Positions 1-18,907 of a DNA stretch of 64,000 nt are shown here, in pieces. Positions within the stretch are counted from its first letter, which is position 1; each line of letters begins with the position of its first letter. A program made the translations under genes and the position numbers. Origin of the DNA: Pseudomonadota bacterium. GTDB taxonomy: Bacteria > Bdellovibrionota > Bdellovibrionia > Bdellovibrionales > SG-bin7. Below the pieces are notes generated by a model. That model did not search any database. It was not told where the DNA came from and saw only the letters and a list, made by a program, of their open reading frames with translations. The stretch spans positions 18,261 to 82,260 of the forward strand of contig JAWXAY010000043.1 of the NCBI GenBank assembly GCA_034439715.1, written 5' to 3'.

Positions 1-264
1 CCCACTCAAGACTTAATTAGAGAACTTACGCAACGAGAGGTCAAATTCACTCTTGTGAATCCTATCGATAAAATAAAAAATCAGTTTTTAACTAAACAAA
101 ATGGCAAAGAATTGATTTTTGAAATTCCCTCAAGCCATCAGGTGGGGGAGCTTCTGTGTAGCTTGAATATTCCACTTCTTAATATTGCCGACATTAAAGT
201 CAGCGAAGGTACCCTCGAAGAAGCCTTTCGCAGAGTTTTAGAGGGGGGGAGCAGTTTTGCTTGA
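1..264 (+). CDS. C-terminal part of ABC transporter ATP-binding protein (5' end outside window)
   Basis: Frame is open from base 1 (PTQDLIRELTQREV...). Ends in the 'IKVSEGTLEEAF' tail typical of ABC-2 exporter ATPases and overlaps the downstream ABC-2 permease. Confidence 0.7.
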   Translation, partial: PTQDLIRELTQREVKFTLVNPIDKIKNQFLTKQNGKELIFEIPSSHQVGELLCSLNIPLLNIADIKVSEGTLEEAFRRVLEGGSSFA

Positions 265-1060
265 AACCCCCCACCGCGAATTAAATTGGACACCTTTTTA
301 TGCGCTGGTTTTGCGCGAAATAAGACGTTTTTTAAAGGTCGCCACTCAAACTGTCGTGATGCCTGTGGTGAATTCATCGCTCTATCTTTTAATTTTTGGC
401 GTGAGCTTGGGACAGCGACTCAGCGTGCAAACAGAAATCTCTTACTTGGCCTTTCTAATCCCGGGACTAGTAATGATGGCGGCTCTCAATAATGCGTTAA
501 TGAATTCTTCAAGTTCCATCATTATTGCTAAATTTAGTGGTGAGCTCGAAGACCTGCGGGTAGCGCCTCTCAGCCCTGAGAATATTTTGTGGGCGATGGC
601 AATTGGCGGGCTATTTAGAGGCTATGTGGTGGGTGGTATTACTTTTTTAGTGGGTTTAGCATTTTATCGTTTTTATGATGAGCAATGGTTAGTAATTTCT
701 CACCCCTTCGTGTTGGTTTATTTTTTAAGCGCCGGCTGCCTTGCCTTTGGCAAGATTGGGATTGCGGTGGCCTTATGGGCGAAAAATTTTGATCATGTCT
801 CTGCTGTCACGGCTTTTATTGTGATGCCTCTCTTATACTTAGGGGGAGTATTTTATTCGATAGAGAGTTTAAGTCCGTTTTGGCGAAGCGTGTCTCAATA
901 CAATCCCTTACTTTATATGATTAATGGTGTTCGTTACGGCGTTTTAGGCGTGAGCGATGTCAGTGTCGTAACTGCGGCGCTTGTCACACTGGGGGCTCTA
1001 GTGTTAAGTCATTTCTTGGCTAGATTTAGTCTCCGCACGGGTAGTTATCAACGCTGGTAG
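257..1060 (+). CDS. ABC-2 type exporter permease (YadH-like)
   Basis: About six hydrophobic segments; motifs REIRRF, YLAFLIPGL, LGGVFYS, NPLLYMINGVRYG. Confidence 0.9.
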   Translation: MLETPHRELNWTPFYALVLREIRRFLKVATQTVVMPVVNSSLYLLIFGVSLGQRLSVQTEISYLAFLIPGLVMMAALNNALMNSSSSIIIAKFSGELEDLRVAPLSPENILWAMAIGGLFRGYVVGGITFLVGLAFYRFYDEQWLVISHPFVLVYFLSAGCLAFGKIGIAVALWAKNFDHVSAVTAFIVMPLLYLGGVFYSIESLSPFWRSVSQYNPLLYMINGVRYGVLGVSDVSVVTAALVTLGALVLSHFLARFSLRTGSYQRW

Positions 1061-2450: not shown

Positions 2451-2490
2451 ATTCATGGGCACACTTTGTAAAACAACAAAGGAGATTTCG

Positions 2491-3393
2491 ATGTTAAGAA
2501 TGCTGACCCTCATGGTCCTTTCATTACTCTTTTTCCAAATGGCCCAAGCTGAAGTCGTTATACATATAGATGGCTCAAGTACAGTTTTTCCGATAACCGA
2601 AGCAGTTGCTGAAGAGTTTGGAATTAAAAATCCAAAAACAAAGATAACAGTAGGTGTCTCTGGAACCGGCGGCGGATTTAAAAAATTCTGTAATGGCGAA
2701 ATTGATATCAATGATGCCAGTCGGTTAATCAAAACTTTGGAAAGCGCTGATTGCCGGAAGAATAAAATAAGCTACGTAGAAATGCCTGTTGCTTATGATG
2801 GACTTTCTGTTGTCGTTAATTCACAAAACACTTGGGTAAACAGTTTAACCGTTGCCGAGTTAAAAAAAATCTGGGAACCAGATAGCAAAGTTAAAACCTG
2901 GAAAGACGTCAGATCCACTTGGCCCGACAGAAAAATTATTCTCTATGGCCCCGGCACAGATTCTGGAACCTTTGACTACTTTACCGAAGTGGTAAACGGC
3001 AAGGCTCAAGCAAGTCGTTCGGACTTTACAAAAAGTGAGGACGACAACGTTTTGGTTCAAGGTATCGTTGGAGACAAAGATGCCATGGGCTATTTTGGTC
3101 ACGCTTACTACGAGGCTAACAAAACAAAGCTCAAAGTTGTGCCCATTCAAGCAGAAGGTGGTAAAGCGATTACACCTACAACTGAGACAATAGCAAATGG
3201 CACCTACAAACCACTTTCTCGCATGATCTATATCTATGTGAGTGTGGCTGCGGGTAAAAAGAAAGAGGTCAGCAGTTTTATTGATTTCTACATGAAGAAT
3301 GCCGGCGCTTTAGTTAAAGACGTAGGATACATTTCTTTGGAAAATAAAAAATACGAAACGGCGCTCAGCGAATTTAACAAAAGAATAAAATAG
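2491..3393 (+). CDS. pstS: Phosphate-binding periplasmic protein PstS
   Basis: Signal peptide (AQA); IDGSSTVFPI, SGTGGGFKKFC, DSGTFDYF, YKPLSR motifs. Start moved to ATG 2491 after SD aaggag. Confidence 0.95.
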   Translation: MLRMLTLMVLSLLFFQMAQAEVVIHIDGSSTVFPITEAVAEEFGIKNPKTKITVGVSGTGGGFKKFCNGEIDINDASRLIKTLESADCRKNKISYVEMPVAYDGLSVVVNSQNTWVNSLTVAELKKIWEPDSKVKTWKDVRSTWPDRKIILYGPGTDSGTFDYFTEVVNGKAQASRSDFTKSEDDNVLVQGIVGDKDAMGYFGHAYYEANKTKLKVVPIQAEGGKAITPTTETIANGTYKPLSRMIYIYVSVAAGKKKEVSSFIDFYMKNAGALVKDVGYISLENKKYETALSEFNKRIK

Positions 3394-3415: not shown

Positions 3416-3760
3416 ATGAAAGTTATTAAAGTTTTATTTACTTTAGGTTTTTTAGTTAGCCTCGGATGCGCCAAAGACGGTATTCCAATATTGGGCCTTG
3501 ACGGTGACGGTAAGGTGAGTGAGTTTTTTATAGGAGAGAAAGATTTTAAGGAAAATATGACCGGGCTTATAGATTCGGTCAATAAGTCCACGATTAAAGT
3601 GTTAGAGGAGAAAGAAGCCAAACCTTTTATGCTAAGAACAGTTGTTGTCGGTGTCGGATTAAAATTTGAAGCTGGCTTTGGTCCGTTTGCTAAAGCAAGT
3701 GCTGAGCCAAAAGTGAGATTTGTTTTTTCAAACGTCGCTAAAGACGTTCCGATGCCCTAA
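3416..3760 (+). CDS. Hypothetical lipoprotein with one helix + beta-hairpin unit
   Basis: SD ggag; lipobox SLGC; C-terminal hairpin FMLRTVVVGVGLKFEAGFGPFAKASAEPKVRFVFSN. Confidence 0.8.
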   Translation: MKVIKVLFTLGFLVSLGCAKDGIPILGLDGDGKVSEFFIGEKDFKENMTGLIDSVNKSTIKVLEEKEAKPFMLRTVVVGVGLKFEAGFGPFAKASAEPKVRFVFSNVAKDVPMP

Positions 3761-3780
3761 CTAAAATGAAGGAGAATATG

Positions 3781-5064
3781 ATGAAAATATTATTAATAGT
3801 TCTTATGTCTCAGGTTTGGCTAGCAGCGGATGCGCAGGCTACTCTGACGGGTTATGTGCCCAGCTCTTGGTATGTCCTAGATCAGGGGCCCAGCCTTATC
3901 GAAGATGGTGATTTGGTAAAATTCGAAAGTACTCTACAAAAAATATTTAAAAGCCAAAGCGATGCTCTCGAGGGTTCGAACTCAGGACTTTCAGAAAAAA
4001 TCAGCGCTGAAAAAAAACCCAAAGATTGGGTGCCTTGGCGCCTACACTCTTACATTACAGAATTGGCGTTGAGTGCCTCAGGCACCATAGGCGTTTTGGG
4101 AATTGGTGGTACAGCGTACAGCCAAATTTATTGGCAGAAAAAGGAAGCCACAGAAAATGTCAACACTGATGAAAACCAACCCATTGAGAGCTTTTCCGGG
4201 CTGACTTTTGCCTTTGATGGAAGCATGGGTCCCGAAAAATGGGATTTTGAAATTGCGAGAATTACTAATGCGGTGCTGTCCCTCGGTCGTATTGAGGATG
4301 AAAAGAATTTTAGTAAAAATCTGAAAACTGAAATACTTAAATTTAAAGAACGAGCTAATGCTGTCAGTTTTCACAATGAAAGTTCGAGCTTTTGGGTTTC
4401 ACGCTATCGCCTAGATCTTAATATAGGAGCCTCAGGCAATGTGAGTTTTGGTACAGCTGGTGGTGACGTCAACTTAAGACTTGAATGGTACCGAGCCAAA
4501 CAAAAAACACCCGGTTTTGTTTCGCGAGAATTAACTGCTGAGAGCGAAAAAATCAGAGATTTTATTCTCACACTAGCTAGTGACCTGTCGACCTCTCTCG
4601 ACGACCAAACTATTTTGCCAGGGAATTTTGTGGTTAACGAGTTTCGTGTGGGCTTAGGCATTGGTTTAAAGGGGGATGCAGGTATAGCAAAAATTGAAGG
4701 TAAAATGATTGGACACATTTACTTTAGCCGAAAAATTTCGAAGAAAAGTTTTGTTAATAGTGATTTATATCTCACAAAAACCACCCCAGCCTCGCGTAAC
4801 ATAAAAATTATTGAGGACTCTAATGGTTTTATGGGCGTGAGCGATACCTTTGAAGTAGATCGGGAAATCTTTAAGGATGGCCTCAAAAAGGCATTAAAGA
4901 TCAGTTCTTTTTTAACTCGAATTTCAGGTAGTAGCCAAAGTGACAAATGGGCCATTTCAAAAGCCAAGGTTGGCTTCGACATGTCTCTTAAGGGTGACAT
5001 AGCTATCGCTGCTATTACTGGTACTGTGGCAACTGAATTTGTATTAACAAATCTTAACTTTTAA
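3781..5064 (+). CDS. Hypothetical exported protein with four helix + beta-hairpin repeats
   Basis: SD aaggag; signal peptide ending AQA; four ungapped 35-aa repeats with invariant Gly16 and Gly25; terminal Phe. Confidence 0.85.
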   Translation: MKILLIVLMSQVWLAADAQATLTGYVPSSWYVLDQGPSLIEDGDLVKFESTLQKIFKSQSDALEGSNSGLSEKISAEKKPKDWVPWRLHSYITELALSASGTIGVLGIGGTAYSQIYWQKKEATENVNTDENQPIESFSGLTFAFDGSMGPEKWDFEIARITNAVLSLGRIEDEKNFSKNLKTEILKFKERANAVSFHNESSSFWVSRYRLDLNIGASGNVSFGTAGGDVNLRLEWYRAKQKTPGFVSRELTAESEKIRDFILTLASDLSTSLDDQTILPGNFVVNEFRVGLGIGLKGDAGIAKIEGKMIGHIYFSRKISKKSFVNSDLYLTKTTPASRNIKIIEDSNGFMGVSDTFEVDREIFKDGLKKALKISSFLTRISGSSQSDKWAISKAKVGFDMSLKGDIAIAAITGTVATEFVLTNLNF

Positions 5065-5076
5065 GCGGGAGAAAAG

Positions 5077-5397
5077 ATGACGAAAACTTTAATTGTAGTT
5101 TTAAGCCTAATATTTGGGGCACAAAGCTGGGCGGGCACTGGTTCTTATTCTGAGCTTAATATGGATAAGTTTAGTAATTTCTTAAGAGATAATATTAACT
5201 CAGCCGAGTCCGCTCTTAACGAAAATTTGCTTGAAGGTGAGTCAGATGAGATGAATTACTTTAGGCGCTTTATGGTGAGACTTAAGGGCCGTTTTGGCAT
5301 TGAGGTGCCTTGGATTGCGAGCTTCACCATTAACCCCGAAGTAGAATTGGTATTTATTCGCGAATACCCCGAAGGATGGGAAACATATAAACCCTAA
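5077..5397 (+). CDS. Hypothetical exported protein with one helix + beta-hairpin unit
   Basis: SD gggag; signal peptide ending SWA; hairpin YFRRFMVRLKGRFGIEVPWIASFTINPEVELVFIR. Confidence 0.8.
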   Translation: MTKTLIVVLSLIFGAQSWAGTGSYSELNMDKFSNFLRDNINSAESALNENLLEGESDEMNYFRRFMVRLKGRFGIEVPWIASFTINPEVELVFIREYPEGWETYKP

Positions 5398-17714: not shown

Positions 17715-18907
17715 TTTAGTCCCAGTGAATTGTAGGCCTTCTGTAATACCGTTTTGCGGTGGGCATAGGGCAGTTGTCGACCATTTACGTAAATCGAGGG
17801 GGTTCCCTTTACCCCGGCTTGCTTGCCAGCATTAATTAGCTTTTTAATAGCAAGTTCAGTATCTGGAGATTTCATACATTTCTGTAAATCATCCTTATTG
17901 AGTTTGAGTTCAGTTAACGACTGTTCAATTTTCTGATCCACTTCTGTAAATCCGCTAACTCCAACCAGATTTTTAAAAAACCAAGAGTGAGATTCGGGTC
18001 CTTTACCCAGTTGATTGGCACAAAAGGCATTTTTAGAAATGCGGCAATTGGGTCCGACTTCCCCTTTGGGACCGGCCTCACAGCCGTCAAGTGGAAATGT
18101 GAAGTAGAGAAGTCTTGCGGTCGGATGAGAATCTACGAATTCATGAAGTATTTGGGCAGCGGTCTGACAATGGGAACACAAGAAATCAGCAAATTCTACA
18201 ATAAAAAAAGGAGAAGCGGTTTCGTGCGATCCAAACTCGATACCTTGGAGCGCACTAAAATCATACTGAGTATTGCTTTGCCATTCTTGGATTGCGGTAG
18301 ATTCCATCTTTTCAAGATCAGCAAGACCCGTGTTTTGCCAAACAATGGCGTTTACTAACCAGCTCAAAGCCAGAATAGTTAAATATACAGCTAGTGTTTT
18401 AGACTTATTTAAAGATCCCACAAAAGGAAAAAAATCCCGGTACATTTTAGTGCCGCTAAGATTCCAAAGACTGAGGAATGATACCAATGAAAACCCATAG
18501 AGCAAAATACAAAAAGGGCAATAAACATGCATCAATGAAAGCGAAATGGCGCCCATAATAAAAGAAGCAAACAGTATAGGCGTTGAAAACCAAAAACTAA
18601 TTTGGGCTTGTCTGTGATTTGTCGAAAAAAGTTTATAATTGACTAGCATCAGAAGTAAAATGAGGTTGGAAACCGCTCCAAACATTGCCACTGGAGTACC
18701 AAAAATTTCAGAATATGTGCTACTGACAACGGCGGAACAGTTAAACTTCTTTGAAAGGTCGCAAATGCTATCTTCGCCAACACCAATTTGTGTCTTGAGG
18801 TGTACTGTGTAGAGGTAAATGTGGACCAGAACAGAAGCAAGTGTTGAAAAAAGAGCCAACCAGATAAGCTTAGGACTTTGGGCTGATGAATCTCTAGTGG
18901 GTATCAT
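17711..18907 (-). CDS. VKOR-DsbA/thioredoxin fusion (disulfide bond formation)
   Basis: VKOR loop C-x7-C..VVSSTYSEIFGTP and CPFC; thioredoxin FADFLCSHC and cis-Pro GTPS. Confidence 0.93.
   Translation of the reverse strand: MIPTRDSSAQSPKLIWLALFSTLASVLVHIYLYTVHLKTQIGVGEDSICDLSKKFNCSAVVSSTYSEIFGTPVAMFGAVSNLILLLMLVNYKLFSTNHRQAQISFWFSTPILFASFIMGAISLSLMHVYCPFCILLYGFSLVSFLSLWNLSGTKMYRDFFPFVGSLNKSKTLAVYLTILALSWLVNAIVWQNTGLADLEKMESTAIQEWQSNTQYDFSALQGIEFGSHETASPFFIVEFADFLCSHCQTAAQILHEFVDSHPTARLLYFTFPLDGCEAGPKGEVGPNCRISKNAFCANQLGKGPESHSWFFKNLVGVSGFTEVDQKIEQSLTELKLNKDDLQKCMKSPDTELAIKKLINAGKQAGVKGTPSIYVNGRQLPYAHRKTVLQKAYNSLGLN

Follow-up and report, generated by a model that had tools for sequence, protein, structure and literature searches.

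A conserved three-gene operon from a Bdellovibrionales bacterium carries 1 + 4 + 1 Pepco-related helix-hairpin units and is predicted to encode a single exported heteromeric beta-barrel

Our analysis concerned a window of 64,000 nucleotides (positions 18,261 to 82,260 of contig JAWXAY010000043.1, assembly GCA_034439715.1) from a bacterium of the order Bdellovibrionales, and within it an operon of three genes, here called A, B, and C. A preliminary description of the same DNA had proposed that the three products are exported, that they share six copies of a unit composed of an amphipathic helix and a beta-hairpin, and that they pool their hairpins into one barrel. The three open reading frames (ORFs) were confirmed on the same strand with intergenic gaps of 5 and 12 bases, and each is present once in the source genome. 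The public record starts B at its second ATG, which shortens the protein from 432 to 427 residues. As described below, the six units are homologous to each other and, by profile comparison, remotely to the anti-phage pore protein Pepco, while covariation predicts that A and C fill a gap in the sheet of B to close a single ring of six hairpins. The features of the operon are listed in Table 1.

Table 1. Features of the A, B, and C operon, numbered from the first nucleotide of the window (aa, amino acid residues).
Feature	Position	Strand	Description
Gene A, 114 aa	3416..3760	+	hydrophobic N-terminal stretch with a lipobox-like Cys18; then a beta element (short, conserved) and a single helix-hairpin unit
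Hairpin A (aa 71-106)	3626..3733	+	predicted partners: B hairpin 1 and hairpin C
Gene B, 432 aa (427 from ATG 3781)	3766..5064	+	N-terminus resembling a signal; helix-hairpin unit present four times
B hairpin 1 (aa 91-125)	4036..4140	+	preceded by helix 47-71
Additional strand and helix (aa 146-171), long linker joining B hairpins 1 and 2	4201..4278	+	AlphaFold2 elements
B hairpin 2 (aa 209-243)	4390..4494	+	preceded by helix 179-200; inward R/D/E residues strongly conserved
B hairpin 3 (aa 288-322)	4627..4731	+	preceded by helix 258-278; of all units nearest to Pepco
B hairpin 4 (aa 395-429)	4948..5052	+	preceded by helix 366-388; predicted ring closure onto hairpin 1
Gene C, 106 aa	5077..5397	+	N-terminus resembling a signal; single helix and hairpin; part of the family has a Pro-rich tail
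Hairpin C (aa 60-95)	5254..5361	+	predicted partners: hairpin A and B hairpin 2

The four 35-residue repeats previously noticed in B are present at the positions given for them. The six best ungapped 35-mer diagonals of B sum to 219, versus 113 ± 14 (maximum 158) in 500 shuffled sequences; the single best repeat pair scores 49, a value that the best of the 500 shuffles also reaches. Profile-profile comparison at the level of the unit linked all six copies, with values of 95-98% for B-B, 80-96% for A-B, 95% for A-C, and 37-83% for C-B comparisons, and reversed-profile controls did not exceed 29.5 bits. With whole alignments, the corresponding values were 96.6% for A-C, 92.3% for A-B, and 84.9% for C-B. 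A, B, and C thus carry 1 + 4 + 1 homologous helix-hairpin units, one of them in each of the small flanking genes, as had been proposed. An AlphaFold2 model of B built from 137 sequences (mean predicted local distance difference test score 82.6, predicted template modelling score [pTM] 0.80) contains four hairpins, their strands being 14-18 residues long, and places a helix ahead of every hairpin, again in agreement with the preliminary description. The two glycines described as common to the units proved less general, since Gly16 is near-invariant but in the B units only, while Gly25 is retained in unit 3 by just 27% of homologues. Aromatic residues occupy unit positions 1 and 33 at frequencies of 77-100%.

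A resemblance to the Trypco and Pepco domains had been suggested and it held up, most clearly for Pepco. The Pepco profile (PF24393) matched B1, B2, B3, B4, and A with probabilities of 93, 91, 96.5, 88, and 94%, respectively, with the reversed Pepco profile reaching at most 24%. When 527 ORFs were searched with the B3 profile, Pepco ORFs ranked on top (E values of 2e-10 and 2.5e-6), and Pepco sequences align with the unit residue for residue. Matches between Trypco1 (18 sequences) and the A and B units were weak (46-81%) and the match to C was 3%, while the one Trypco2 sequence tested was unmatched. Profile comparison thus shows the unit to be a remote homologue of Pepco. None of this is reflected in annotation: Pfam and NCBIfam returned no family hits for A, B, or C, neither these three proteins nor 34 A and 28 C homologues reach the curated cut-off of PF24393, PF19493, or PF19631, and the source genome contains no PF19493 or PF19631 match. 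An Atlas search with A retrieved a cluster having 13% Pepco members (score 0.75), which we regard as a lead only, and the same search with B retrieved nothing. According to Evans et al. 2025 (PMC12642450), Pepco, also called Trypco1/Trypco2, is a single-unit anti-phage pore protein encoded beside a serine or cysteine protease; it pre-assembles as a 9-10-mer barrel pore that becomes toxic upon cleavage of its tail, prefers 18-20 strands, and combines a hydrophobic barrel exterior and a charged lumen with an essential amphipathic helix. The terms "signal peptide", "secreted", "tandem", and "Bdellovibrio" do not occur in the main text of that paper. Trypco1 (PF19493) and Trypco2 (PF19631) were defined by their co-occurrence with trypsin-like peptidases in conflict systems, as stated by Kaur et al. 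2020 (PMC7159879).

The three genes are a conserved set. We counted 115 distinct B homologues with a model coverage of ≥55%; 96 of these are preceded by A and followed by C, as the preliminary description had required, and in 14 of the remaining 19 the end of the locus is no more than 350 bases away. C is fused to the end of B in 9 of the 96 operons, and the hairpin content of 1 + 4 + 1 is constant whether C is fused or free. The reported lack of an adjacent protease also extends to the homologous loci, as trypsin or caspase families were encoded by none of 76 flanking ORFs from 39 loci, although a protease encoded elsewhere might still act on the proteins. The peptidases seen in the flanks, one astacin-like and one C92, are not common to distant loci, and the same 76 ORFs include no conserved fourth gene. 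Relatives of B form at least 373 clusters at the 50% level. Within the phylum, to which the distribution search was confined, B occurs in 35 of 401 genomes, 17 of 384 of the order, and 51 of 237 and 10 of 75 genomes in two other families, with up to four matches per genome. The named carriers are metagenome-assembled Bdellovibrionales, Pseudobdellovibrionaceae, Bacteriovoracaceae, Oligoflexia, and Halobacteriovorax, plus a few other labels, and include no isolate genomes. The operon was not matched in plasmid and phage collections. One short match of 34 residues (L035) was left out of the homologues. The records of five loci (L101, L102, L103, L105, and L122) are titled WWE3, Deltaproteobacteria, Proteobacteria, or Sulfitobacter, which may be loose labels or transfers to hosts beyond Bdellovibrionota.

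All three chains are likely exported. A hydrophobic N-terminal 8-mer is present in 32 of 34 A, 131 of 137 B, and all 28 C homologues, a crude criterion for which the starts of A and C were chosen in favor of such a stretch. Of the export signals noticed earlier, the lipobox is inconstant (8/34 A, 26/137 B, and 0/28 C). As for the terminal Phe of B, to which attention had also been drawn, an aromatic C-terminal residue ends just 70 of 137 B sequences (some of these records being incomplete), none of the 34 A or 28 C homologues, and none of the B-C fusions. Most B sequences (119 of 137) have a tail of ≤3 residues after the hairpin, as do 10 of 34 A and 11 of 28 C sequences.

The arrangement of the hairpins was addressed by covariation, using our own mean-field script. 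In B alone, all four hairpins pair internally at i + j = 39, and the first strand (a) of each hairpin pairs with the second strand (b) of the next in register 37. From 241 sequences, these links score 6.7 for h2a-h3b, 5.4 for h3a-h4b, and 3.0 for h4a-h1b, but just 0.5 for h1a-h2b, so that the sheet of B by itself is interrupted where hairpins 1 and 2 would meet. When A and C from the 96 operons were paired with B, the links h1a-Ab (4.2), Aa-Cb (3.5), and Ca-h2b (6.3) emerged, and the best partners of the six hairpins close one ring in the order B1-A-C-B2-B3-B4. This ring scores 24.4 versus 17.3 for the runner-up among the 120 possible rings, compared with 12.1 for the best ring from register pairs excluding 37 and a maximum of 12.0 in 14 global shuffles of A and C. 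All 18 two-thirds subsamples recovered it, as did runs with two other regularisations. The three inter-chain links together sum to 14.0, versus 1.4-5.1 in 15 within-clade shuffles; an earlier paired alignment of 41 rows had been too thin apart from the C-h2 link. Inter-subunit strand pairing, upon which the preliminary description had made its proposal depend, is thus seen by covariation, and the ring accords with its pooling of 4 + 1 + 1 hairpins in one barrel, although the ring order differs from the gene order, which had not been foreseen. A and C are accordingly predicted to insert between hairpins 1 and 2 of B to give 12 strands or a multiple thereof. With a two-residue shift per hairpin and textbook strand spacings, the predicted 12-stranded barrel has a shear of ~12, a C-alpha diameter of ~23 Å, and a height of 34-37 Å. 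Both the long h1-h2 linker of B and the h4-C linkers, which measure 20 residues in the shortest fusions, seem to agree with this order, and the extra strand and helix within the former may bridge the gap that A and C fill.

The chemistry of the hairpins is that of a barrel with a nonpolar exterior. Hydrophobic residues make up 79% of the outward positions and charged ones 1%, whereas inward positions are 36% charged with a mean net charge near zero. The base of the barrel is ringed by aromatics, and the turns are tight and hydrophobic, as are most residues at tip positions 18, 20, and 21. The helices couple to outward positions of the hairpins (I190-L239, 9.3; I379-F404, 7.1; F193-L216, 6.2; F182-I220, 5.3), with the strongest helix-sheet couplings at outward positions 8-12 and 29-31 and the couplings in general mostly at 8-12 and 29-33, and they also contact one another (helices 3 and 4, D273-R366, 11.7; helices 4 and 1, Q58-I386, 5.9). 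Based upon these outward couplings and helix contacts, the helices seem to cover the hydrophobic outer face of the barrel in its lower half, like a jacket, which makes a plain porin less likely and favors either a soluble pre-pore, as in Pepco, or a soluble tunnel. Searches for a known fold gave nothing significant. A PDB sequence search returned nothing below an E value of 0.28, and its match to JUBO2 covers a helix only and was dropped as chance. Foldseek found no PDB match to the B model at E 0.001 (perforin-2 had 0.012), while five rows with E <0.001 from a viral structure library had template modelling scores of ≤0.14 and were likewise discarded. A wide structural search gave no Z score of ≥5; T-fold proteins ranked first at Z 4.9 (root mean square deviation 4.7, 73 residues aligned), which is below the noise level of the tool, and gasdermin pores scored 3.0-3.2. 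Such null searches do not establish a new fold.

Taken together, we consider it probable that A, B, and C are exported and assemble 1:1:1 as B1-A-C-B2-B3-B4 into a closed 12-stranded beta-barrel that inserts as a water-filled membrane pore. Following export of all three chains, the barrel would form first as a soluble pre-pore jacketed by its helices, becoming 12-stranded only once A and C occupy the gap in B. It would then enter the bilayer with its hairpin tips first, rather than by the strand-by-strand insertion typical of the beta-barrel assembly machinery (BAM), and a narrow aqueous pore would result. Because all three chains have to come together beyond the cytoplasm, this requirement would substitute for the protease trigger of Pepco, and a three-part assembly serving as the switch agrees with the absent protease neighbor and the inconstant tail. 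The trio shares with Pepco the homologous amphipathic helix and long hairpin, the hydrophobic exterior, and the charged lumen. It differs in its export-type N-termini, in having a fourfold tandem chain and two different single units in a predicted ordered ring of six hairpins, and in lacking both a trypsin or caspase neighbor and, in most B proteins, the tail. From Trypco1 and Trypco2, whose helix-hairpin layout it shares, it differs by the absence of any Pfam hit and of a trypsin-like peptidase neighbor. Thus, the trio may well work like Pepco, but it fails four features of membership, namely the curated Pfam cut-off, an adjacent protease, a single unexported unit, and a cleavable tail.

Several observations weigh against this assembly. 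The three-chain complex and the pore are predictions from sequence alone, and the paired covariation has an effective depth of 83 sequences. Register 37 was derived from B alone, whereas register 35 was added and the numbering of C corrected after the paired data had been seen. In addition, the ring still ranked first in 14 of the 15 within-clade shuffles because the links within B fix most of it, and the inter-chain evidence for the places of A and C therefore consists only of the size of the three links. When a separate clade of 15 operons is taken by itself, the ring comes third among the 120. Covariation is also blind to the difference between 12 and 24 strands, and 12 is fewer than the 18-20 of Pepco. 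The outward placement of the helices is a modest signal (15 outward and 4 inward among pooled helix pairs over z 3, versus ~10 and 9 expected) and would fit a soluble tunnel as well. As for the kinship with Pepco, C matches it directly at 4% and is linked only through A, while the Pepco profile consists of four sequences, one of them below the family cut-off and three above it. Finally, five B homologues have no detected partner despite their distance from the locus ends.

Of the alternatives, the one we take most seriously, while still judging it unlikely, is that the same barrel remains soluble as a helix-jacketed tunnel of the kind found in T-fold enzymes, residing in the periplasm or at the surface and binding or carrying a ligand without ever crossing a bilayer. 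This would account for the coupling of helix residues to outward hairpin positions, for the T-fold proteins at the head of the structural matches, and for the absence of both a protease trigger and a constant tail. Those T-fold scores are in the noise, however, the couplings at positions 8-12 and 29-33 leave the tip half with its hydrophobic turns uncovered, and the nearest homologue, Pepco, is a demonstrated membrane-active barrel. We find it improbable that the trio is instead a constitutive outer-membrane channel of the producer, i.e. an ordinary BAM substrate with the terminal Phe of B as its beta-signal. Signal-like N-termini, the aromatics at unit positions 1 and 33, the aromatic ends of 70 of 137 B proteins, and the lipobox in part of the family would all suit such a channel, but the strands do not form a meander, as the first strand of one hairpin joins the second strand of its successor and h1-h2 is unpaired, and A, C, and all B-C fusions lack the terminal aromatic residue. 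Porins also have long polar loops instead of the tight hydrophobic turns seen here, and neither a transporter nor any other partner is conserved nearby.

The remaining two alternatives concern stoichiometry. A ring of the correct order that is closed by two copies, giving a 24-stranded pore ~45 Å across, seems to us slightly less credible still than the BAM channel; covariation cannot place the h4-h1 contact within or between chains, and Pepco prefers 18-20 strands, but the single-chain B model has a pTM of 0.80, and the regions of h1 and h4 are jointly covered in the structural matches (92..429), which would fit an h4-h1 contact within the chain. Least credible is that A, B, and C are simply co-regulated paralogues, each forming its own homo-oligomer. 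A and C do resemble the homo-oligomerising Pepco in having a single unit, and the five B homologues without a detected partner could be read in this manner, but the fixed 1 + 4 + 1 content, the occurrence of B-C fusions, the lack of an h1-h2 link within B, and the drop of the inter-chain links under within-clade shuffling all speak against it.

For the three-chain pore that we prefer, the least certain step is its target. We lean towards the membranes of other cells, either prey or competitors, since the patchy spread, the several copies per genome, and the decay by insertion (see below) favor a conflict role, while the lipobox in part of the family favors the outer membrane of the producer itself, which is a quite plausible target too. 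It is accordingly possible, but no firmer than a tentative picture, that a Pepco suicide pore was turned into a weapon of three exported chains, self-inserting into prey or competitor membranes, with two key subunits completing a gapped scaffold. The phylum is largely predatory and under-studied. The trio is not part of a core predation machinery because it is missing from most of the searched genomes of the order. Among known systems, two-component leukocidins and the membrane attack complex are also built from different exported chains that each give hairpins to one barrel, and alpha-haemolysin has a one-hairpin-per-unit geometry with a shear equal to its strand number. The trio would share with leukocidins and the membrane attack complex the joining of unlike exported chains in one barrel, and with alpha-haemolysin the one-hairpin-per-unit geometry and the equality of shear and strand number, but has no sequence or fold match to such pore formers and no large receptor-binding domain, and, unlike in these systems, two small chains would enter the sheet of a third. 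The 12-stranded barrels of TolC and the trimeric autotransporters similarly draw their strands from three chains; those are homotrimers contributing 4 + 4 + 4, whereas the trio would contribute 2 + 8 + 2 from three unlike chains, and no similarity was detected. Multi-chain membrane barrels are nearly always rings of identical chains, and an ordered 2 + 8 + 2 barrel with two chains inside the sheet of a third would depart from this. Among the open-access papers listed in our literature search, neither this operon, nor an exported, tandem, or heteromeric form of Pepco, nor a heteromeric barrel made of a gapped four-hairpin scaffold and two small subunits was found described. The trio widens the range of the Pepco unit from cytoplasmic anti-phage suicide to a putative exported form represented by at least 373 unannotated sequence clusters. 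With ~590 residues, the trio also offers a small system for the Pepco-type transition from soluble to inserted and for the role of the amphipathic helix, as well as a candidate envelope or killing factor.

A number of individual loci depart from the standard arrangement. An insert of ~1.3 kb interrupts the B gene of L209 and L214 (G816:C304) and contains two ORFs, presumably an IS3-type transposase pair, which indicates that the operon can be lost. In L079 (4944-5876), B stops after hairpin 3 (311 residues) and continues directly into a pyridoxal-dependent decarboxylase gene; hairpin 4 and C were not found at this locus, and the same genome carries a second, whole operon. The B of L194 (G140:C108) appears scattered over several reading frames, which would reflect either a broken gene or an assembly error. 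L093 (4623-5729) has a very divergent compact B of 369 residues, the inward faces of which seem to contain more large charged residues; a weak A precedes it and a 74-residue ORF follows. Two convergent operons ~5 kb apart are present in L069, and L177 (G712:C91) has two B genes separated by ~750 bases.

In the window itself, the operon lies between a phosphate-binding-protein gene and a cluster that includes what we take from its sequence to be rpsP. The former gene (2455-3393) is on the same strand, ends 22 bases upstream of A, and has no adjacent permease genes; it is not retained next to the operon in the homologous loci whose flanks were scanned. A scan of the operon for promoters and terminators returned chance-level results, and its G+C content is 40.5% compared to 42.3% for the genome. 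In four public microbial-mat runs, contigs match the stretch at ≥99% with no differing letters, none of them covering it whole. The sole neighbor of the operon seen three times is a related protein of 370-380 residues (L068, 3465-4610; L069, 3396-4514; L071, 6758-7903), one copy of which matches GCS2 (glutamate-cysteine ligase).
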